NCBI GenBank assembly: GCA_964106645.2
Contig: OZ067043.1
Reading direction: 5' to 3' (one strand)
Source: Podarcis pityusensis
Taxonomy: Eukaryota
DNA: 64,000 nt
The position numbers and the translations under genes are program-made. How positions within the stretch are numbered: the first letter of the stretch is position 1; each line of letters begins with the position of its first letter. Below, in pieces: positions 3,638-32,800 of this stretch. The notes under the pieces are model-generated. The model was given only the letters and a program-made list of their open reading frames with translations, was not told where the DNA came from and ran no database searches.

Positions 3638-4600
3638 CTTAACACTAAGTGTGCACTTTAAATTTGTTTTAATATATACAGTATACAGTTATGCTCTTTG
3701 GTTCAGGAGAACACCAGAAACTTATTAACATGGCCAGAAAAGAAATGAAAGCATTGAGGCAGTAGTGGGTGTGGAAAGGAGAAGAGCAGAAATTGATGGT
3801 TGATCCTCCCACCCCAAAACACCAAAGCAAATTTTCTGTAACCCCCGAGCACAGCAATTTGGAGCCCAATTTCCTCAACTTTTTGGATTATCTCCATATT
3901 GGACAAAGTCAAATTTACAGGGGAAAGCATAGATTTTTGTGTTATTTGACTGCACAAATTAAGCAACCACACAGTAAATTCTGTGTGGACAAGCCCTTAG
4001 TCTCTCAATACTTACACATGCTACTGAGAGAGAAAGACAGGACAAATACATCCACTCTCCACCCCAACAATGAGATGTGATTGCATATGTGAATACATTT
4101 TGGCAAAAGTTACGTCTGCTCAGCAAAGGATGCATCCCACAGTTCAGCATGTGAGAGTCTGTGTTCTGGCAGAGGGAATGTGATCGCCAGCAATGGTTCT
4201 TTCTTGTGGTGAGTGCTGCTCTCTTCTGGTGAGGGTGCATACATGCACTGTTTGTCTCTATTTGCATAAAATTGTCCAGGAAGTTATTGTGATTTTTCTA
4301 TCTCTGCATTTTCTTTCTCTAGGCAGGAAGGAAAAGATTCGGCTGAAAGCTTACTGAGCATGTAACCTGACACAGAATGTTCCCTGGATAGTGTGGTACC
4401 TGCAATGAGCATGTGGGTCTGTCTGTCTGTCTTCTGTCTATCCGTCATGGGTACAGTGAAGACGTATGAACAAAGGGAAATAATTATTGTGCATCAGATT
4501 GTTTTTACTCATATGTACAACCAAATACCATTTGTGGTAAGCAAATGCTACTTTCAGTATTGATATCAACATATGGAACCAACATTGATAGGGTAGCCAT

Positions 4601-8800: not shown

Positions 8801-11800
8801 GTACAAAAGGGGTGAAGAAAGGGGATAGGAGGAGGAGAAGCTTTGTGCTTGTAATTCTAAGTTATGTGCATGCAACATGATCTTCTTTTGGATCTTGCCA
8901 GCATGATTGCTGCATACAGCAATATTGTTTACCCTACTCTTGAACAAGTTGTGAGGCTACATTCCTCTTAAAAAATAGAAATAAAAGATCAGATTCTTTT
9001 TCTTTTTTTGAAATATGAAATATAACACATTTTTCAGCACCCTCATTCTGTGCTGTCCCTATAGTTCTGCATTTGAGTGTCTAAAGAAATTAATATCTCT
9101 GTACCTGCTGGTGAAAGCAATGTGCTATCACTTATTTCAATTTTGTTTCATCTATATACAGCATAAAGCTGGGATGCATAATTTGAATGTCCTTTTTGGG
9201 CATAAGGAAAATAGCAATCCATTCTACTTTTGTTAATGATATTTACATTTACATTCTTTACACTAGGATTTGCAGGGTCTCAGGAAACCTCTCAGGCTAT
9301 ATTCACTGAAGGGCTCCTCTCTCTTGCTTTTTGCTGCTTCCTGTTTATATTTGCAGCATTGTTTAGATTGTTGAGTATAAATGAGAATCACACCTGCAGC
9401 AGAATGACAGAAATGTGGAGGGATGGGAGAATTAGGGAAAGTTGGTTTGTCTGCGGAACTTTGGGAGGTCTGGTTGACACTGCAGGTATTGTCTGTCATC
9501 AAATAGAAATTCTGCTACCCTCTTAATCCCCACCTCCAGAATGTTCCTGCATTTTGAGAACTATGAGTAAAGTAGGATGTGAAGACTTTGCAGGAAAGCA
9601 AAATATAAACAACATCCTCTTGCTGCTCATATGTTTTTGTACTGAGAGTTTAAGCTTGACTAAAGTTAGATCAATAAAGCTGGATTGTGATGTTTTGAGG
9701 CATTGCATAGGAGAGAACAGATGCAATCTGTCAGATGTAAAAATCAGAATAAACAGAGACTGATGTTTATACTCCCACATAATTTTGGTGTTAAGGTTGC
9801 ACAGCCTTTGATAAAAACCTTATTTTTCAGAAAAAATCCAAGAAGTCATCGGAGACCCTCACATTTAAGAGACCAGAAGGAATGCACCGGGAGGTCTATG
9901 CACTACTGTACTCTGATAAAAAGTAAGTTTTGTTACCTGGATAGTTGGTGTTTTCCTTAAACCAGCCTCTCATCTCCTAGGTATTTGACAGATGAAAGCC
10001 TTGACAAGTCTGTTCTTGAAAATTTACTTTCTCCAGCTTTCGATAGTGTTTTTACCTTTAGCCCCTTCCTAGTATCTATGACTTGCTCTACTGGAAGTGC
10101 TGTTTCAACATTTTTGATCTCCATAAGCTAAATGTGTGAAGCCCTTTTGATATGTAAAAATTTCAGATGTTGAGGGCATGGAACTCTCCTTTTAAAAAGA
10201 ATGTTGGGAAATACTGAACTATTTACTGTCTGGAAGAGCTATAGTTTTTGATTCTGAATTTTCATTTTGGGTTCATGAACCTTAGACAATGGAAAGTTCA
10301 CATGAATTGTAACAGATTTCTCAACTCTCACATTCTGTTTTGTTCCTTGAATTTATCTGTATTTTCAAACGTTCATCTGTTTGTGGTAGATGATGAAGGA
10401 GAATCAGAAGCAAGTAAAGGGCAAGAGATGTCAGAGGCTGAATTGTAAGAAGGCCGTGCTATTATGCCTTGCCTAAATAATGTTTTAGGAGCACTATGCT
10501 TCGTGGATTCCTAGATTGAATGAAAAAAGCAGATTTTCTGTATACTGCAGTATTTGAAAGTGCATAACAGGAAACTATGGTATTCCATTATGAGAATGTG
10601 CTGTGATTAGCCTTTAGCTTGTATTTAACTTCTAAGAGGTCTCTTCCTTGCTATCAGAAAAATGACACCTTAGAGGTGATTATAAGACCTACTTTTTGGT
10701 TTTTGGTTGGCTTTCTCATTTTCTATAGAGGAACTGAACATATGGGGATAAATGGTCACTAGAGCTAACCTTGCTGCCCAGTGAGCCCTTAATGAGCCCA
10801 CCAGCTCCGTCTTTTATAGCTTCAAGCAAAGAGGCATCCTATTCCTGAAACATACTTGTTCTTGGGATCTGTCCTAGGAGATCTTTGGGCATGCTCTTTT
10901 TTTAAGGTCTGACAGTTCCATTTGTCCTTTTTTTACACTTCATGCCAGTGACCATGAACAGCAACTTGAGGAAGTGGAAAACCAGGCTCTGTGTCAGCAG
11001 CAGCTGCAAGCAGAGCTGCTATTAGCCAATGCACATCCAGGCTAAATAACGGGGGGGGGGGGGGGGCTGATTGCAGACTCTGTACCTCACTGGCCTATGT
11101 TCACGTAAGAGACTAATAAATTGTGACCCTCTTTGGTCTGTGGAGCTTTGGGTTGTGTGCTGAGTGTGTAAGATCAGTCTACAGTATACAGAATTGTCCT
11201 AGATTTACACTGATCTTTAAGCAGTCCTCAGAGATCATAGAAGGGGATTAAATATGCAAAATGAGCCTCATGCAGACAGTAGGTTCCATTAATTTGTACC
11301 TTGTCTTTGTTTCAGGGATGCACCTCCCCTTCTTCCAAGTGACACAACACAGGGCTACCGCACAGTTAAGGCAAAGCTGGGATCTAAGAAAGTGCGGCCT
11401 TGGAAGTGGATGCCTTTCACCAACCCTGCTAGGAAGGATGGAGCAATGTTTTACCACTGGAGGAGGGCAGCAGAAGAGGGCAAGGATTACCCTTTCGCCA
11501 GATTCAACAAAGTATGGAGGCTTGATCAGAGCTTGTATTAAGTATGAAGGCTTGAACAGGGTTTGTGAAATGGGAGTGAGTGGATAAATTTGTGCCAAAA
11601 TATCTCAAAGGACATCTCCAAATACCCTCTTTCTTTCACTTGCTATCTCTAGGGTTAATTCCCATACCAACTTCAGAAGTGTAAGACTGATTCTGGTATC
11701 ACAGGACATTAAACTCTGTAGTATTCTTTAATTTTTTTAAATACTTGAGTCCTGTGGGGTGTTTGCACTGTTGCTACTTATCAGTGTCCACACTGAAAGT

Positions 11801-14800
11801 TCTGATTTGGAAGGCATCTAAGTAATATTGGGTTGGGTAGTGCCTTAAAGCCACAAGTTAAAGTTAGCATGAAAAAGTCACAAAAAGTTAGCAACTTTTC
11901 TCTTAGGAGCGTGCAGGTGTGAACACACACACAAACACACAAAATTATGTGAGGTCAGATTGGACCAGGAGCATTGCAAACTTTATTATACTGTGACATC
12001 TGAAACTGAAATTCTTTCCAGTAGAGTTGGCACCCTTAGGGTAGGGTTGAACATTTGTTAGATGCCCAAACAAACTTTGCACTTCTGCTTTTTATGCTTC
12101 TGATGTAGTGCCCCGAGTGGAGGTTGTGTTAGGAGAGAGGCACATTCCTCAGATGTGATTCTCACGTGTACATCTTCCCCCTGTGTTATGTTGAAAGCAG
12201 AAAAAGTAGATTATCAACTGGGAACACATCTGTGGCTGTTCATATCTTTAAGGAGATAGCATTGAGTAAAGGTGCAATTGCCCCAAGATTGAGGGGGCCC
12301 GCCACGTGTGACATCACACATGTAACGCATGTGCAATGTTGCATCATCTGGAGGAGTGCTCTGAAGGAACCGGCCACTAAAGCTGCGCCACGTTCGGCTG
12401 TGTGCTTAGCCTCCTCTGTCCCTTAAACATTGGAATAACAGATAAAACTAATGGAAGGAACTAGCGGCCCCCACTGTATCATTTGGGTGGCAGCAAAGAT
12501 GGGATGTGGGAAATAAAGCTTACATTTTGAAGATACATTTGACTTGTGATTGGGGCATAGAAGTGGGCAACTGGATTTCTTTCCTGTGAAATCATGGGTT
12601 TGTTTTACCTCAAAGTAATCCTGCTCGATGAAACAATCCTGCATGAGGGGGAGTATGTTGTGCAAGCCGTCTCATTCAGTCTGCTCTTTCCTTCTGCAGA
12701 CAGTGCAAATTCCAATTTACTCAGAACAGGAGTATCAGATGTACCTTCATGATGATGCTTGGACCAAAGCTGAAACAGACCACCTCTTTGACTTATCCAG
12801 ACGGTTCGATCTTCGCTTTGTGGTCATTCATGACCGTTATGACCACCAGCAGTTCAAAGTAAGTGCCTGTCAGCTAATACCGTCTACAGTGAAGTTGCCA
12901 TGGTGCAGTTTGTTGAATAAAACTTATTTCCAGTTTAAGGATCTGCAGACATGGACTATGCAGTGTGCTGGTTAAAATAATACATGCCTGTTAAGGGTTC
13001 CTGAATTCTCTTCCTGAAGTTTTGTGTGAAACATTATAAGCACCAGCTGCACTGGGTAAGAGACTTACAAAAGCAAGGAAAAAATGGGTTGTTAAGTTCT
13101 GAGAGGCATCTCAACAGTGTTTATTTGGAGGTGAGATAGCTAGGACAGAATAGGGATTCTGTTGGTGTACTACCCACCCTGTCACTCAACAGTCTCATTT
13201 CTAGCAGGAGTAGTCTTGGTGTTGGAGTCCTCTCAACTTGTTGTGCTGGAGAACTTCAACATTTGTGCTGATGCCTTGTCAGGACTGGCTCAGGTTTTCA
13301 TGGCTGCCATGACAACCATGAATCTGTCCTAAGTAATATCTGGCCCTACCCATGCTGCAGGGCACATTCTGGACTTGGTTTTCTGTGCTGGATTGGATTA
13401 TGGTGATCTTAGCATGGAGGAACTTTCTGTTAGTTCCACTGTCATGGTCAGATCACTCCTTGGTGGGGTTTAGACTCGCTGAAGCTCATAACCTTAGTGG
13501 GTGTGTGGGTGTGATTAAGATGTTCCACCCTAGAAAGCAAGGTATCTGGAGTGTGTGTTGGCATCTCAGATCATGGATGAGACAGATTATCTAGATCTAT
13601 TTCAATCTGGTTTCAGGCCTGGTTATGGGAGCGAGATGGCTTTGGTTGCCTTGGTGGATGACATGCCAGGAATTGGACAGGGGGAGTGTGTCCCTTTTGG
13701 TTCTGCTGGACTTTTCAGTGGCTTTCAATACCAACTTGGGATGCCTTGTTGGAATGCAGCTTGGAGCCACTGTTTTACAATGGCTTTGTTTCTTCTTGGA
13801 GGGGTGAACCTAGAAGGGGGAGCTGGAGGACTCCTGTTTGACACATTGGCTGTTGACCTTTGGGGTCTCTCAAGGTTGTGTTTTGTCCCCCATGCTCTTT
13901 AACATTTACATGAAACTGCTGGGAGAGGTTGTCTGGAGCGTTGAAGTTCAGTGTCACCAGTATGCTGTTGACACCCTGCTCTATTTCTCCTTTCCACCTA
14001 AATTCAAGGAAGTTGTCTTGATTCTAAACCAGTGTCTGTCATCAGTGATGGACTGGATGAGGGCGAACAAATAGAAACTTAATCCACACAAAACAGAGGT
14101 GCTCCTGGTCAGTCAAAAGGCTGTGCTGGATAGAGTTGTACTCTCCCTGTAGACACATGTTTGCAGTTTGGGTGTGCTCCTTTATTCAGCCCTGGGCCCT
14201 CTCTTTGGGAGCCTCTCTTATTCCAGCAAAGGAACAATCAGCAACCCACTTTAAGCTCCCAGTAGCTCCTTTGAATCCCCACCCTTACTTGCCCAAAACC
14301 TGACGTCATGTGCAAGGAGAAGAACTAAGTTGATTAAGCTAGAAAAAGAATTTTAGGGTTTCTACTGCTGGGTAACTGATTAAGTGAGGTGAGATGGAGA
14401 GTGTTAGTGAAGATGTTGCCATGGAATCAGGAGACATGGAACAGAGGATTTTGGAGAATGGCTATATTTTTAATAAAATTGTATTGGTGAGGGAAGATCC
14501 CAGAATATGCAGTCCTGTCTTGATTTGTGATTATTGAATGAAGAGCAACAAAGCCTTGTATGTAGCATGGGACCACGATATTGTGATAACTAAGCCCGGA
14601 TACTACTGCCCAGAGAACGATAAGTTATTGGATGCTTTGCAGATGCTGGAAATAAATAAAACTATTTCCTGTGATAGAGTTCACTCATTGGCGCTGATTA
14701 CAATCATTTTCCTAACATTTCTCTGATGCTTTGTTCATGTTGCATAACTTTAAGCTATTTTTTCATGGTGTTAGATTTCTTTAAGCTCAGTTGTATCCTT

Positions 14801-17800
14801 GTTCTCTCCTTAGAAGCGGTCAGTGGAAGATTTAAAGGAGCGCTACTATCACATCTGTGCCAAGCTGGCCAACATCCGTGCTACCCCAGGCACTGACTTG
14901 AAAATCCCCGTTTTTGATGCTGGCCATGAAAGGCGCCGGAAAGAACAGCTAGAGAGGCTATATAATCGGACACCAGAGCAGGTAATGTCAGGAAATGTTG
15001 CAAGGGAGCCTGGCTCACATTATCTTACACTGGACCTGTAGCAATAGCTTGTCATTTCTGGGTACTCCCCAGTGCCCTTCAGGGCTGCTAATGTGACTCC
15101 TGTTGGAGGTAGTAGTAGGTGCACCTGCCATCCTTTAAGCGTGATTTATCAAGTAATGGGCATACACATATTAAGTGATCAATGTGAATAATGGAATAAC
15201 TACTAGAAAACAAAGTGTGTTAAAATATGTTTTATTTGAGTTTTGTCTGAGAAGGATAGAAGCATAGTGCTGATTACGCTTGTCAAGTTCTATCTCTGGA
15301 TTTCAGACAATGCATTTAGCATATTTTTCTTTTCAGTAATGCAGTGGTATCCACACTTTTTTCAAAGAGGGCCAGATTTGATGAAGTGAAGGGCTGTGAG
15401 GGCCAACCAAAGTTGTTGACCTTTTTTTAGGATTGAAGTTGTTGAGCGGATTAGGTCCCCGAAACTACTGTATGGGTACTTGCATTACCTGGAGAAAAAC
15501 AGTTGCTTTCATGAAACACCCTGGACACGCCATCATTTTGTAGCTTGTAGTTTGTCTTTTGTAGCTCGTAGTTTGGTGGTGAAGGAGCTGGCAGCAACTG
15601 CCTGATCTGGTATTGGCTGAGAATGTTAATAAACATTCATATTTCTGAGGAAATGAAACAAAGCGAAAGGTAGGTTTGACTGTGTTAAACACACTCAGAA
15701 AGCTCTGTGAGCAGGAGTATCTGTGAGGGTATAGCAAGGGCAGCCTGTGTGCTGAAAATGGGGGAAGGGGTCAAGAAAGGAAAGGCATGGACTTGTAAAT
15801 TATGTGTGGTGGAAGAAAGTGAGACTGTGAAGAGCCCTTATATAGGCAGGAGATGCAAAAAGAGAGACAATGAGATAGTGACATTAACAACGTAGAATCT
15901 ATATACTATAGCCTGCTATATACATAGTGAGAGCTTTGGAATCTGATTGGCTGTGGAATCTAGTGTTTCACGGCTTCATGAGCCTTTAAAAATTGCTTGG
16001 GTGAGAACATTGTACTATTTGTTGCTGCTTTTGTCTCTCTAGTAGTATATTACTTGGCTCCCAGAAGACCACAGGGCAGGTGAAACCCAGGCCAGAAGCA
16101 CATCTGTTGCCATTAAGTGGCCCCTTTGGATTGCTTTTCCAGTCATGTTTCCGTTTCACCTGTAGGTGGCAGAGGAGGAATATCTAATCCAGGAGCTGCG
16201 GAAAATCGAAGCCAGGAAGAAAGAGAGGGAGAAGCGAACACAAGACTTGCAGAAACTCATCACCGCCGCTGACACCACCACTGAACAAAGACGTGCAGAG
16301 CGCAAGGCACCCAAGAAGAAGCTGCCACAGAAGAAAGAGACGGAGAAGCCTGTAAATATCTTGTGCCTGCCCTCTTTGTTAGGGTCTACCTTGCCATTTG
16401 TCTGCCACGGCCTGGGGCAGGGAGTGAGGGGTGGTTTGTCGGTCCTCGCCATATAAGCATTGTTTCTGTGTTTTTGTTTGTTTCTTTTTAGACCCTCATA
16501 TCTCTTGGGGTGTGGAGAAAAGTTGGGTTTCAATCATAGCAAGCTGCAGAGGGATTTTGGTTAAGCTGGAAGGACTTGAAAGTGCTGCACTAGGAAGGAG
16601 AGAAACTGGACTCATGCAAAGCCCTCTCAGAGAGCAAGCAGTTCAGTGGTTAGTGAATACACAGCAAGGAACTTGCTCTTCTTTGTGCCATGCAGCATAG
16701 CAACACAAGGGGAGATTAGGGAAATTTGAAAGAAGCACATTTTCCAGCTGATTTCTTCTAAAAAATTACAATTACAGGATGAGGTAGTGGTCAGACTCCC
16801 TTCTCGGGTTTCCCAGAGCTTCTGGTTCTGGCATAATTGACAGGCTTGCAGAGGAATTGAAGCTCTTCCAATCTAGGGTTAAGCCAATATTTTTGAAATG
16901 TTAAAGAGAATGATCTTTAGTTGATGTTCCTGCCCTCACCTTATTGACATTCATTTATTTATAAAGAAAAAATTATATACCACCCATACACAGAACACCA
17001 AGGTGGTGTACAAAAAATACCAATGTAAATGCAATGCCTCTTTGCCTCTACCTTTCCTATGTTCAGTTGTGAACTTCTCACTCATTCTATGAAATATTAG
17101 ACCACAATATGATTTACATGTTGTGAGTGGTGGAACAACGGAATGTCTTAATAATATATGAAATGTCTAGCACTGTGTTTTATTTAGAATACACTGTGGA
17201 ATTACCACATTGACGCCATGCAGTTTCTGGGGAAAGGACTCTGCCTTTCAGATGGCTCTAAGGAGGGAGATGAGTAGGAAGAAGCCACTACATACTTAAA
17301 AAAAAAAAAAAAAAAAAAGTGTGCACCACTTTGTGTCACTACAGGCTTACTGCTTGTTAGGACTGCTCTACTGACTTGGGTTGGGCTGCCCTGAAGGTTT
17401 GTGGTTTCAGTTTCCCTTTGCCTCTTAGTCAGCCAGATTGTTCCATGCCATGCAGCATGTGGAATCAAATAGCCACTCAAAATGCTTGAGGCGTGTTTGG
17501 CTGTCTCCCCCAGTATTGCCTGGGGCCCTTGTGCCTGCCTATAGGTAAGCACCTCAGGGCTCCTGAAGGCAGCTTCTGTTGTTGCACTAGTGCTGTTTCA
17601 ACCATGACAGAGTCCATTAGGAGTCAATTACCAACTGTAGCAGGGAAACGTGTGTGTGTTTTTTTGAAAAAAAAATGCATTTTAACTAAGAATTTGAATT
17701 GAGGGCTGTATCAGCATCATCTCAACAAAGGGAAGTCATTTACCAAAGAGTCAATTGAGGTTGAAGCATTTACAGCTCATGCTGGCGTGTGAGGGATAGC

Positions 17801-26800: not shown

Positions 26801-29800
26801 TGGCCTGGAAGTAATTTTTGCAGCGTAATCTTGGAAGAATTTGGTCCCCAATCAGAGTCAACCTTCCTGTGATTTGCGTATAGTAAAATGCAGCTGTGAG
26901 TGAAAGAATTTCCTTAAAAGTGAGCTGTCATTACAAAAATAACCTAGAATCCACATAAAGGAAAGAACAGCTGAAAAGCGTAAATACTTTGCATAGCTGT
27001 GAACAATCAAATACTAAAGGAAGAACTCTACTCAATCTGCAGCTGTGACTGAAAAATGCCAAGAGGATGTTGGGTCACATAAAGGAAGGGAAACCCATAT
27101 GGAAAATATCCTAATGCTCCTGGACAATTTGATGGTTCCCTCTTATCTGGGTAATGTCTGCATCACTGCTCACTTTATCCTTCAAAGGAAATTACTCAGT
27201 CGGAGCTTGAGAAGGTGATTTCACAACCTCCTTGGGCAGCCTGTTCCATCGCTGTAGTGATCTGACAGTTAGGAAAACCTTTCCTAATGGATGACTTAAA
27301 TCTAAATGCTTTTAATTGAAATCCTTCGGTCTGTGTCTTATTCCTAAAAGACATGGTGAAGAAAAGTTCTCTCCATCTTGGGAGTTGAGGATGGAGGTGG
27401 AAACCCACCAGGAATGCCTTTCTGTGTAACCCTCACTGAAATGAGTTGAAGTTGCACAGCAGTACAGTATTTGTGTGTAATGCCCATTGATTCCAGAGCC
27501 GCTGGCTCAGAACCCAAAGTGGATCATGCTCTGCATGTGAATCTTTAGATATGGTTACAGGAAATCTAGGACAGCATAAAAATGGCTGATGGTATGCATT
27601 TAGTAGATTATTGTTTTACAATAAACCTTGAAGAGTGGCAGACAAAAATCTGCCCTTTGATCAGATTTAAATACAACAGAGGATGAGCTCACTTCTCTAG
27701 GGTGACCATAGCATGGAATTTAAAGCCAGTTTGGACATTTCTGTGAGTGAAAAAGAAAGCAATTCAGGGCTTGAGCAATTAACAGGAAATTAAAAAACTC
27801 TAATTCCAGGGATGTTTCTAGTGCCTGATTGGAAGCTGTAGAAAAAAGAAGACAGATTTTTCTTTTTCTTTTTTTAAATAATATTTATTGATTTTCCAAC
27901 CATTTAAACACAATAAAGCAGAAAAAAGAAAAAAGAAAAAGAAAAAGCAAAGCAAAGAAACGAAAAAACACAATATTAACAAAACAAGACCATTTAAAAC
28001 CATTTAAAACACAAAACAATTTCAATATCTTAACTTTCATTCCCTTATTTCCACGACCTCCTCACACCTCCCTTTTTGTATTCCACTTCTATTAATTGTT
28101 TCAGCAATTCCTTTCCATCTCCCTCTGTTTTCTATCCTATAATTATCTTAACATATTCTAATCTTATTTTTCCCTTTAATACTCTATTAGTCTATTTATA
28201 CTTAATTCCTTATAGCATTTCTACTAAAGCCATATAACTTCATTCCAACATTTTTCTAACATTCATTATTTTTACAATATTTCTATAAATAATCTTAAAC
28301 TTTTTCCAGTCTTCTTCCACCGACTCTTCTCCCTGGTCTCGGATTTCTGCCAGTCGTTTCCGCCAATTCCATATAGTCCATCAACTTCATCTGCCATTCT
28401 TCCCGGATAAATAAATCTTGTGTCTTCCAGTTCTTCACAATGAGTATTCTTGCTGCTATTGTTACATACGTGAAAAGAGTTCTATCCTTCTTTAACACCA
28501 ATTGGCCGACCATGCCCAGGAGAAAGGCCTCTGGTTTCTTCAAAAAGGTATATTTAAATACCTTTTTCATTTCATTATGAATCATCTCCCAAAGTGTCTT
28601 AATCCTTGGGCATGTCCACCAAAGGTGAACTCTAATCCTCAAATTCGTCTGTTTTTCTTTAAGTTCAGTCATAGCAAGCGTCAACTTATATTCATCAAGT
28701 TTCTTCTGTAGGACTGGGGCTCTCTTGCTCTTTCTCTCCAGTTGTGTTTCTTTACATTCAGCAACAACAGCTTTTTCCCTGGCCTCCTCCGCAGTTTGCC
28801 GTATCGAAATAGGTTCCTGTGTCAATTTCTGGGTAGTTTCTATATTAGTATTATTTATACTTTCTATACTTAAGTTAGTTTTAATGATTGAAACATCCAC
28901 TTTTGCATTTATTGTGTCCATTTTCCTGTGAAGCTGATCCAATGAATCATTTATCTTAAATAATGCAGCCACTAGAGCCTCTTCTGTCAACATTTCTCTT
29001 GGTTTTACATATACTGGTACCAAGGCTGCCACAGAAAAAGCAGGGGGGCCTGATGGTGGACCTCTCCTGGATTGTTGCCAAGTCCTCCCAGACCTTAATG
29101 TTTTGTCAGCAGTTGACTGGTCCGTTTTTCCTCTTCCATTAACCATAACACTTAAAAGATTCAAGGTCAGTCCCAGAGTCTCACGGTTTTTAACTTGCAG
29201 CTGGAAATTTCCCTAACCCAACTCTTGTAAAGCAACCGGTTTCAGAGGCTTCCACTAGGGGGAAACAGTTTCTATTTGTAATAGTCAATAGTATCCTCTT
29301 TTAAACAATCCGAAAATTAGTTTCAAGTTAGTTTCAATTTTCAGTTACTTTTACTCCTTTTTAAAGCAGCCGGAAACAGTAGAAACAATGTATTTCTCTT
29401 GTTTAACTAGCTGTCAATGAACATTCCAAAAGACGTCAGTCCTACCAGCAGCCCGTTTCCAGGGTCAGAGCGGCGGTGTTTTAGATCTCTTCGCTCTCTC
29501 CTGCAGGCATATTCAGTCCACAACTTCCCCCCCTCTTCTCCTGCCTCCAAAGGGAGGTTTTGTTCTTTGCCGATGGAAATTTAATCTTTTACAAAAGACT
29601 TTCCAGGACTCCAGCTTGCAACTTCATTGCCTCAGTCTATTTACAAAAGGGGAAGGCGGACTTCCTGTTTTGAACCTCCCCGCTTTGATACCAAATTATA
29701 CTTTTAAAAATCCAATTCTCCCGTTTCAGCTCTACTCATGGGTAATTACTTTAAAGTCAAATTGTCCACAGGAAAAAGTCAGCGCTCTCCGGCAACGGCT

Positions 29801-32800
29801 GTGCGGCTTCGCTCAGTGGAAGAAGCAGACGATTCGAAGCACCGCGCCACTCACCCCACGTCACTCCGGAGCCCCGAAAACGGGTTTCCCCACGAGTAGG
29901 GGAGGCGCAGAAGGTGCCCGCCGAATCCCACGTTCACAGGCTTCTCCCACCTGTGATTTTTACGGGTCTCCGCCTTCGCCGTGGCGGCCAGACCCAATTT
30001 CCCACGGGGCAAATTCCTCCCGGTCAGAGGAATTCCGCCATTGCCGATGGCGCCAACCCGGAAGTCCAAAGAAGACAGATTTTTCTGATACTTGTTGCTG
30101 CAAGAGTCTGGCACTTTTGTTTGAAATCTTTGCAATTGGACCATGGACTTCAGTTGAGCCCAGATGTGGTGGCACTCTCCTTGCAGAATTTTATGAGACC
30201 TAAATGTATCTCAATCAGTGTTCTGAGCAGGCTTAAGGAAAATGGTAATGGTTTAAATAATACGCTCATAATAGCCCTTACACACATGCTTACACACATT
30301 CTTACAGTGTCTGGTAGGATTCTTGATCATTGTGGCATAGAATGTAAGCACAAGTTCTTCAGTAGGAAAACCCATGAAGAAATGTAGTAGCTGTGCAGGA
30401 CAAGTCGGAGCCTTCTTTGTGGTGGCACCCTATTTGTGGAGTTTTCACTTATTAACAGCAGAGGTGGCAAACCTTCATAAAGACAAAGAGCTGCATTCCC
30501 GTCTGTGAAAGCTTCTTGAGGGCCACATGCCAGTGGCAAATGAGGCTGGAGGCAAATGTGGGCCAAGCAGCAAATGTAAATGTTGTCTTTATACCATAAA
30601 CTAGTTTCTACACACACTGATGCACCCACCCTGCTATTCTCTGTCAGGACAAGCAAGAGGCATTCTCAGAGTTCAAGGACACATTCCAGCCAGGCAAAGG
30701 GTATGAAGCAGGGCCTGTGATGGGTGTTGCCTGGGGAGAGTCCTGAGGTTCGGCCAGAGAAGCCTAGAGGGTTTCATTTGGCCTCAGGCCTGAGGTTCCC
30801 CACCCACAGCTATGTTAGGCACCTACACTGTGACCACGTGAACAGCAAATGAGGTGTACCTGTTTACTCAAACTTTTTAGGTTTTAAACAACTGACTGAT
30901 TTAGCTCTCTTCTCCTTTTTAGTTGTCTTTGTTGGTGTAAGAACATATTTTTTTGTTTTACTGCTTTTTCAAAATAAAAGAGGACTTGGAAGTGTGCCAG
31001 GCGTGAATATTCTTGCCTGTATTGGTTCATTGTCTTACTCTGGCAACCAGGAGGTTGTTTACTAGTCTGCTCCCTGCCAGTCTCATTGGTGGTTCAGGGA
31101 GAAAGTCCCACCTACTTGCCCCTCTGCAAACTTGCTCTCTTCTTCCAGTCACGTGGCCTTGATTCATATATTGGTGTGTTGCCCTTTTATTTATTTTTCT
31201 CTTTCTGCACAGTTCATGCATTTACTGGTTGTTTATAGCGAGGACAAAGGCTCAGAGTCCCTAAATCAAAAGTGATGCTGGCATAATTATAAGCACAAGC
31301 TGGCGTTGCAAAGAGGGCTGCAGGGAGAGGTTGTCAGAAGACGGGAGAATCCAAGATATATTAACCTCAAAAATTCCAGCTAATCACTTCTTCAATGTGA
31401 GCAATCCATTTTTTGAGATATGATTATTTGGGGACTTTAGTAATAATAAATAATTCTAATAGATTACAAACAGGGAGGGCCTGACACTACATGCTTTTCA
31501 AGAATCCTTCCATTGCACTTGCTTAACAACAAACTTTCTCCGGTGTTGCAGTGGGGTGCTAAGGGAAGCACTTTATTGCCTAGTGGAAAATAGCAGGTTG
31601 TGATTGGCCACCTTTAATCTAATGTGGCTCCCGAAGGCTTTCAATCTGCCATAAATCCCAGCATGTAGTGTTGCCATTTTGAGCTGAGATGTGTTGCCAG
31701 ATACAGAATGGTTGTTTCAGATATGTAGCCTGAAGATTCCATCTAGGTGGCTAATGGCCACCAGCATTTTTCGGAAGCATCTTTGTCAAACTGATTCAGC
31801 CCTGTGCCTCATCCCAATGTTTTGTTTCCAGCACTATCCAGTCAAAGAGCAATGCTAAACAGCTGGATTATTGCATTAATCTGCCCCCATTAAAGATCCA
31901 TGCAAGATTTGTCTGGGAAGGAAATGGAGAAGTGTGCATAGGAACAAAACTGCACATGCTACTAATATCAACTTCATACTTGGTTTTACATCAGCCTTCA
32001 GTACATGTACCAACATGTGACTATTGACATCCCCAGTTTTGCTCATAAATTGATACAAGCATCCTTTTGAAGCAGAAAGGGTTAATTGACAGAGTTGGGA
32101 ACGAAGCTGTATCTCTTCTTATCCAGTGTAGCGGGATCTCTGCTGAAGGGCTGGTGCGGAATGTGGACTCTTAATGCAGGGAAACGTCCTTCCTGCACAT
32201 TATTAGGGCAATAACTTGGGACTCCTGGATTTGAGGAACTTTAGTGAGCTCTGTCAGAAAGGCACTTCTATTACAGGCGTTGGGTTACCCAGATCTCTTT
32301 GTGGGCAAATAGTCCTGAATCTCACTCCTGAACCTAGATAGGTCTCTGAAGGAAGCAGAAAAGAGCATAGAACATCAACAGTTTTAGTCACAGGTCCTGC
32401 TTGAGGGAAACGCCACACATAGCCAGGGGAATAGGTCCTTGTGGTAGCCAAAACCAGCACCGTTTATCAGAGTCCTGCATTTTGTAGCCTGAGAGTTCTG
32501 TCAAACTTGATTGCACCAAAAATCTTGCAAGATTTGAGAATGCCTGCTCTTCTTAGCTGCCTGTGCTTTTGGCTGCCGAGGTGAGTGGAGCATTGGGCCT
32601 TCCCGCTGCCGCTGAGACAGCCAGGCTAACGGAGCCTACCTAACAGATTATCAGCGCCCTGTGAGTAATAGACTCCTCATTTAGTTTTAATACATTTTGC
32701 ATAGAGAGCAATCAACCTTCATCAGTCTTAAAGATGAATTGGCTTAGCCAGCTAAATTTTAAAGATATTAGTTCGACAGCAGCCGCATAAATCATAACGT

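Follow-up and report, generated by a model that had tools for sequence, protein, structure and literature searches.

A stretch of 64,000 nucleotides (nt) from the genome of the lizard Podarcis pityusensis (contig OZ067043.1 of assembly GCA_964106645.2), analysed as a whole and called the window below, carries a 2204-nt derivative of the retrotransposon L1 at 27864-30067 on the minus strand, flanked by identical 19-bp repeats. The element lies antisense within the DMAP1 gene, whose exon at 36256 matches PF05499 (E 5e-23); stretches at 9870-16205 and 40925, placed by peptide motifs, we take to be further DMAP1 exons. The gene occupies 9870-40950 on the plus strand, and the element sits in the long intron between the exons near 16205 and 36256. 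It belongs to a real, multi-copy, non-autonomous L1 family, here named family A, in which a deletion has joined what is left of the open reading frames (ORFs) ORF1 and ORF2. In window coordinates, the features from the 5′ to the 3′ end of the element are:

30068-30086, minus strand: 5′ target-site duplication (TSD) of 19 bp, with the same letters as 27845-27863
29683-30067, minus strand: CpG-rich 5′ promoter segment with YY1-like and presumed ETS-like motifs, probably derived from a full-length L1 subfamily through recombination (diagnostic sites, CpG counts)
29147-30067, minus strand: 5′ untranslated region (UTR), 921 nt long, containing five short ORFs (5-12 codons) upstream of the main one (ORF listing)
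28994-29146, minus strand: N-terminal region of ORF1, codons 1-51, intact here and dispensable in family A (5 shared against 30 private breaks; low confidence in the parent model)
28630-28993, minus strand: ORF1 coiled coil, from Met52 to NLRIR in the first strand of the RNA-recognition motif (RRM) (predicted model of the parent and its fold match)
28629-28630, minus strand: blunt deletion junction with about 4.0 kb lost (comparison with undeleted L1 copies; 209 exact copies)
28295-28629, minus strand: in-frame C-terminal piece of ORF2, corresponding roughly to human ORF2p 1142-1240, followed by a stop after some 17 out-of-frame codons (ORF2 comparison, frameshift)
27864-28294, minus strand: 3′UTR with a T-rich tract, AATAAA at 27884-27889 and a short A-tail at 27864-27875 (sequence)
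27845-27863, minus strand: 3′ TSD of 19 bp, with the same letters as 30068-30086

The perfect 19-bp TSD, the single 283-amino-acid ORF (28295-29146), its in-frame ORF1-ORF2 join between 28630 and 28629 and the AATAAA followed by an A-tail had all been read in an earlier, sequence-only reading of this DNA, and all are present. The letters of its two 5′ motifs stand at 30058-30065, which we take to be an ETS motif, and at 30035-30042. Other descriptions stood in part. The 5′UTR has about the length given, but its CpG richness is restricted to the first 350-400 nt or so (observed/expected ratio 0.83-1.12 at 29701-30100, against 0.26 for the whole window), and of the CCHC region that ends ORF2p the H..W.C half is kept whereas the CxxC half is deleted. 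A small in-frame insertion at about 28715-28730 made the string RKRKR in the coiled coil (RKSKR in the window copy), with RKRKRAPA read in 71 of the 124 copies aligned below; RKRKR presumably resembles a nuclear localisation signal.

Copies, promoters and parent of family A

Exact matches were counted for a 31-mer and a 19-mer across the junction, each with control queries. The 31-mer gave 209 matches and the 19-mer 267, the controls none, and from the ratio of the two we estimate a divergence of about 2% per site and roughly 350-400 copies. With a 121-nt junction query, the 40 scored matches (the best 40 of 758 candidates) were all 99-100% identical, and the junction was spanned in each of 150 fetched loci, at 87-97.7% identity to the window copy. 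Sixty copies were drawn in order of genome position: 47 extend to the 5′ end, and for 43 an automatic search found a TSD of 10-21 nt. Hence many copies have a common junction and TSDs of their own, which the sequence-only reading had named as the sign of a transposing family, and its bipartite non-autonomous family is real; ordinary L1 copies in this genome are clearly mostly truncated. The TC/AGAAAAA site at the window copy, read as an L1-endonuclease-like target, does not extend to the family as a mammal-type target: the base preceding the 43 TSDs is T in 21, C in 14, G in 6 and A in 2, and their first base is A in 21, T in 11, G in 9 and C in 2, which is only weakly pyrimidine/purine. A T-run stands just 5′ of the A-tail in 39 of 52 copies. 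The 3′ piece without the family A junction was found at 905 places and two ORF1 patterns at 35 and 22, the strictness of the ORF1 patterns differing from that of the 3′-piece pattern.

Several successive source lineages form a ladder within family A. Its terminal branches measure about 1.5% and no pair of copies is more than 98.6% identical, which points to a recent burst with no visible sign that it continues. Having lost the endonuclease and the reverse transcriptase (RT), the family is almost certainly mobilised in trans.

The 5′ end has a history of its own. At 23 of the 27 diagnostic sites in element positions 1-385 the window subfamily sides with two full-length elements, L145 and L147, while beyond position 399 only three sites do so and the rest side with family A; sliding identity also shows the 5′ switch, and 28 of 97 typed copies have an L145/L147-type 5′ end. 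Since the basal and sister subfamilies carry the other 5′ type, capture from a full-length L1 is the likely direction, and recombination likely gave the window subfamily its first ~390 bases. Through such promoter exchange, non-autonomous elements follow changes of the L1 5′UTR.

The full-length relatives of family A measure about 6.2-6.3 kb and their ORF2 contains RVT_1 (E 1e-39) and Exo_endo_phos (E 9e-7) in Pfam. Parent ORF2 matches human L1 ORF2p with E 1.5e-106 and R2 with E 2e-23, and by these scores the parent belongs to the L1 clade. A Pfam search of the fusion protein gave nothing significant (best E 0.26), and Pfam and PDB sequence searches with parent ORF1 returned no ORF1 match; the identity of ORF1 is for this reason taken from the predicted fold of the parent protein. 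Its model has a helix at 70-177 followed by a strand at 180-187, with codons 1-51 as a low-confidence region, and its top 11 fold matches are all human L1 ORF1p (best 2ykp, E 1.4e-9). An ORF1 with coiled coil, RRM and CTD thus places the parent in the L1 clade as well, and together with the parent comparison this supports an origin of the N-terminal part of the fusion in L1 ORF1.

The closest parent subfamily found is 85-90% identical to a basal family A member over the 5′ 1.46 kb, runs NLRIR into ALPE in 22 of 22 loci and has a 3′ piece 90-92% identical to that of the window copy (8 of 13 loci informative). Relative to L145 the deletion comprises 4023 nt (3987-4033 nt across seven undeleted copies), with parent blocks 1-1475 and 5499 onward retained. 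Its left break lies in the first RRM strand of ORF1 and its right break inside the zinc knuckle of ORF2, so that the RRM and C-terminal domain (CTD) of ORF1, the endonuclease, the RT and the CxxC half of the knuckle were removed. CC or CT follows the left break in all 22 closest-parent loci, and CT precedes the right break in all eight informative ones. Neither origin that the sequence-only reading had offered was found: the closest parent has no GT donor or AG acceptor for a splice, GT after the left break occurring in some distant subfamilies only, and comparison with undeleted copies revealed no microhomology at the junction. A template jump in reverse transcription and end-joining repair would each fit. 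The conserved ORF2 end was subsequently replaced through a +1 frameshift close to codon 266, which the six commonest variants, amounting to 108 of 124 copies, all carry.

Large internal deletions occur in at least 5 of 19 ORF1-anchored loci of this L1 lineage. Kilobase-scale ones were also seen at single L1 loci (L144, L150, L157, L158, L159, L264 and L268); three of these (L144, L158, L268) and the second family described below resume within about 40 nt of one another (parent 4341-4380), a possible hotspot. Near-identical closest-parent copies with common ORF1 breaks cluster at one chromosome end (L254-L259, C2:0.3-1.4 Mb) and on small contigs (L273-L275), likely through segmental duplication rather than transposition. 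In Podarcis muralis, records named TRIM39-like combine RING-type Pfam families with 62% identity over 68% of lizard ORF1, and are either gene-model artefacts or a host-L1 fusion.

At four contig sets of other organisms (B-E) the listed piece crosses the family A junction in 4 of 4, with a short side of only 14-17 letters that falls under our rule of 31 letters per side, and is suggestive only of the junction being there. In four RNA runs of organism D, whose DNA run has a word share of 0.34, the depth is about 40-370 over most of the ORF2/3′ part common with ordinary L1 but stays at or below 3.4 per strand at 28630-29140, and the listed loose ends at 28629 continue into undeleted ORF2; the tissue of these runs being unspecified, they do not bear on expression of the window element.

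The reading frame in families A and B

The frame was aligned in 124 of the 150 family A copies, 26 being dropped as truncated or interrupted, and a change was counted as shared, and thus as having arisen in source elements, when present in at least three copies; all others were private. In codons 1-51 there are 30 private breaks and 5 shared ones, of which two are stops (49 and 9 copies) and three are frameshifts (14, 4 and 3 copies); codons 52-283 contain 48 private breaks and no shared one. A 1-bp deletion at codon 281 is common to two copies. The contrast has a Fisher p of 0.011 (0.024 without homopolymer sites), and of 0.003-0.009 when pooled with UTR indels. The N-terminal part is broken in 90 of the 124 copies, the frame from Met52 is open in 81, and all 283 codons are open in 20, the window copy included. 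Of the 12 commonest contexts, 11 retain Met52. These counts indicate that the frame is likely under selection.

The amino acids give another picture. In the coiled coil, the ratio of nonsynonymous to synonymous changes (N/S) on shared against private branches gave an odds ratio (OR) of 0.92 (p 0.74), and no amino-acid constraint on it was detected in the source lineages of the 124 copies; these lineages change about 1.7-1.9 times faster in the coiled coil than in the 5′UTR, and 121 of 124 copies have a proline at codon 112, in the middle of the helix. Indels between family A and the parent inside the coiled coil are in frame. From parent to family the ratio of nonsynonymous to synonymous rates (w) falls along the ORF from 1.07 through 0.76 and 0.49 to 0.33, only the last being significant; the third value (p 0.3) belongs to the stretch just before the junction, the best-kept part of the coiled coil. 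Private changes look neutral, with N/S near expectation. Rates derived from the UTR (ORF2 piece w 0.34, p 0.0045) were set aside and the shared-versus-private tests relied on, because the UTR-rate model over-predicted private stops (26 expected, 11 seen).

Source-lineage changes on the sense strand outside CpG comprise 221 C/T against 72 A/G transitions, the private ones 508 against 386, and this bias possibly reflects the error spectrum of the RT of this L1. RNA editing was not supported as their origin, C>T (112) and T>C (109) being balanced and A>G low. One subfamily has a stop at codon 24, and its codons 25-50 shift stepwise to a hydrophobic run via C>T changes (window 28994-29075 and its equivalents in L096, L101, L125, L128 and L132).

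A second family, B, of about 2.3 kb was found via L162 (L162:1156-3990; G000:C1:32409000-32414500), a copy whose 3′ part differs from, and is longer than, that of the others, and further loci are L164-L193. All 40 scored matches to its junction query are 95-100% identical, and 72 exact matches were counted, with none for the control. Family B has lost ORF1 codons ~10-50 in frame and kept the coiled coil, which is fused, 13 codons beyond the family A point, to a piece of ORF2 from just after the RT core. A frame of about 270 codons is kept in 14 of 30 copies at about 20% divergence from full-length L1, and stops account for none of 55 shared changes and 23 of 328 private ones. Over its first ~650 nt, family B shows 93-99% identity to one family A subfamily. 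In the ORF1 tree the two families group together (support 0.83, long branches), and an older common ancestor is possible; descent of A from present-day B was rejected, the HLWWTC region being lacking in eight of eight B copies examined. The Podarcis raffonei record LOC128406054 has the family B junction with the N-terminus intact and was not counted as a second species.

A stretch of the family B ORF2 piece (for example in L168, L188 and L193) is now strongly hydrophobic and membrane-segment-like, with a 19-residue hydropathy of 2.2-2.4 against 1.4 in the parent. Of the 78 differences between this piece and full-length L1, 39 are A>G. Selection, editing or drift could each account for the shift.

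Explanations of the open frame

L1 proteins prefer the RNA that encoded them (cis-preference), and how a passenger other than a short interspersed element (SINE) steals them is an open question. On an explanation that we favour, with our confidence evenly divided, family A is an internally deleted, protein-coding L1 parasite copied by the ORF2p of full-length L1, whose frame from Met52 is kept since its RNA must be translated. One blunt 4-kb deletion in an L1 founded the family. Its RNA would be made from the L1 promoter and, after early stops, translation would reinitiate at Met52; translated almost to its end, the RNA would stay stable and be captured, and ORF2p of full-length L1 would copy it in trans, the fusion protein being mostly a by-product. 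Copying in trans by L1 ORF2p is suggested by the missing parts, by the TSDs and tails and by the identity of the 3′ end to that of the parent. Short length would let most new copies arrive with their promoter, able to found new lineages, which fits the ladder of source lineages.

Passages of PMC9661723 describe that a stop lying within the first 150 nt of coding sequence evades nonsense-mediated decay (NMD), with a nearby AUG favouring reinitiation, and that UPF1 can destabilise RNAs with 3′UTRs longer than 800 nt. The zone that tolerates breaks in family A spans 153 nt and ends right before an in-frame AUG, that of Met52, and so matches the reported escape of early stops via reinitiation. Moreover, the protein looks loose: the coiled coil drifts, a proline is fixed mid-helix, the ORF2 end is frameshifted, and families A and B use different scraps of ORF2. 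Provided that the frame is under selection, translation rather than the protein is rather probably what keeps it open.

Several points weigh against this explanation. Frameshifts set against frameshift-type indels of the UTR alone give p 0.023, and 0.07-0.10 without homopolymer sites; stops alone give p 0.06-0.10, so that each single test is borderline, and the tree used to class changes as shared is itself blurred by recombination. The ORF2 piece hints at amino-acid constraint, with an OR of 0.59 (p 0.12) for shared against private changes, and its stem w of 0.33 has p 0.011, although this value is mixed with the parent's own lineage. By the last-exon rule, as given in part of PMC12477815, an intronless RNA should avoid the main NMD route, leaving that of long 3′UTRs. 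Both families keep the coiled coil, though translation alone does not need it, and the fusion RNA and protein are known here from sequence alone.

The main rival, which we consider doubtful, gives the protein a function: the nascent coiled coil would join trimers of helper ORF1p and drag its own RNA into L1 particles, with the ORF2 piece perhaps contributing a module that is folded or contacts RNA. The coiled coil kept in both families, the well-kept stretch before the junction and the low stem w of the ORF2 piece would all suit such a role, and multimerising with a helper protein is proposed for HAL1 and HeT-A in a passage of PMC5786205. A complex prediction of two full-length ORF1p chains with the fusion scored 0.47 against 0.00 for the best control, with runs agreeing in at least 62% of contacts and a partner pLDDT of at least 59. 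Of 78 solved pairs 51 attain the mark, as do 2 of 108 mismatched ones; at 0.60 or below it is attained by 5 of the 78 solved pairs and all 4 passing mismatches. The mixed trimer put forward in the sequence-only reading is thus weakly favoured by modelling; the human ORF1p trimer being already solved, the prediction may reflect likeness. The absence of detected constraint on the faster-changing coiled coil and the fixed proline 112 speak against a docking function, and according to PMC5605252 the human coiled coil without its N-terminus formed no heterodimers. A fuller version, no less doubtful, would make of these elements at least two lizard L1 parasite families with ORF1p cut to its coiled coil and fused to a scrap of ORF2, the helper-poisoning N-terminus shed and the promoters swapped, the fusion serving as a docking tag that brings its own RNA to helper particles and defeats cis-preference.

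It is distinctly unlikely that the frame is incidental, that is, that family A is an RNA passenger winning by its shortness, promoter and 3′ end and open by chance. An in-frame join has a prior of about one in three, only some 6-8 shared breaks would be expected (our own estimate from the ratios), and the borderline tests and common internal deletions noted above suit this explanation too. However, breaks build up right to Met52 and none is shared beyond it, the indels separating the family A coiled coil from the parent are in frame, and family B, fused in frame, lost its N-terminal codons in frame and keeps a long frame despite its divergence.

A dominant-negative restrictor, whose truncated ORF1p would poison helper trimers and dampen L1, possibly favoured by the host, is very improbable: human fragments of N-terminus plus coiled coil do suppress L1 in trans, to 4% of control, and the full frame persists in the window copy and 19 others of 124, but the human coiled coil alone neither paired nor suppressed, the N-terminus being needed (passages of PMC5605252), this part is broken in most family A copies, private changes look neutral and so give no sign of host selection on inserted copies, and a parasite loses by poisoning its own helper. 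For the interference with autonomous ORF1p that the sequence-only reading suggested, this leaves weak support at best.

Comparison with known systems

In the literature on shortened or lizard L1s, titles and abstract openings name no such lizard family, though a Repbase or Dfam entry may exist, and term look-ups in PMC5381506 and PMC5203782 found no passage on one. A literature look-up gave no support for a non-autonomous L1 in rhinoceros. In passages of PMC5786205, Kojima splits bipartite non-autonomous long interspersed elements (LINEs) into ORF1-present (HAL1, HeT-A, Ag-Sponge) and ORF-absent ones, and SIDEs are called rare in part of PMC6740152; the passages seen of these two papers mention no such L1 case besides HAL1.

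A spliced L1 copy (SpIRE) has a GT donor and an AG acceptor at the ends of its deletion, neither of which is present at the family A junction. As described in part of PMC5860796, SpIREs, like family A, keep both ends around an internal deletion. The truncated human ORF1p described in PMC5605252 consists, like the ORF1 part of the window ORF, of N-terminus and coiled coil without RRM and CTD; from the passages seen, it stems from stop codons in single loci, whereas the family A truncation is that of an amplifying family, with the N-terminus mostly lost. SIDEs and ORF-absent bipartite LINEs (R2, CR1, RTE, Ingi, Vingi) resemble family A in uniting 5′ and 3′ parts of a parent and in amplifying beside their partner (parts of PMC6740152 and PMC5786205), but family A is of the L1 clade, is 2.2 kb long and has a long open frame, and where the Persaeus junction described there has a 5-bp direct repeat, that of family A is blunt. 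HAL1 of mammals, HeT-A and Ag-Sponge are, according to passages of PMC5753468 and PMC5786205, likewise non-autonomous and multi-copy, with a 5′UTR, an ORF1-derived frame and a 3′ end. HAL1 and family A are both L1-derived and without endonuclease and RT; HAL1 encodes a complete ORF1p only, while in family A ORF1 is cut after NLRIR, its RNA-binding domains gone, and fused in frame to ORF2.

The several hundred copies are a natural experiment on what a passenger must keep. It can do without the RNA-binding domains and the N-terminus, but needs the promoter, the 3′ end and apparently a frame open from Met52. Family A fits neither HAL1 nor SIDEs fully, being without the RNA-binding half of ORF1 and yet having a long frame.

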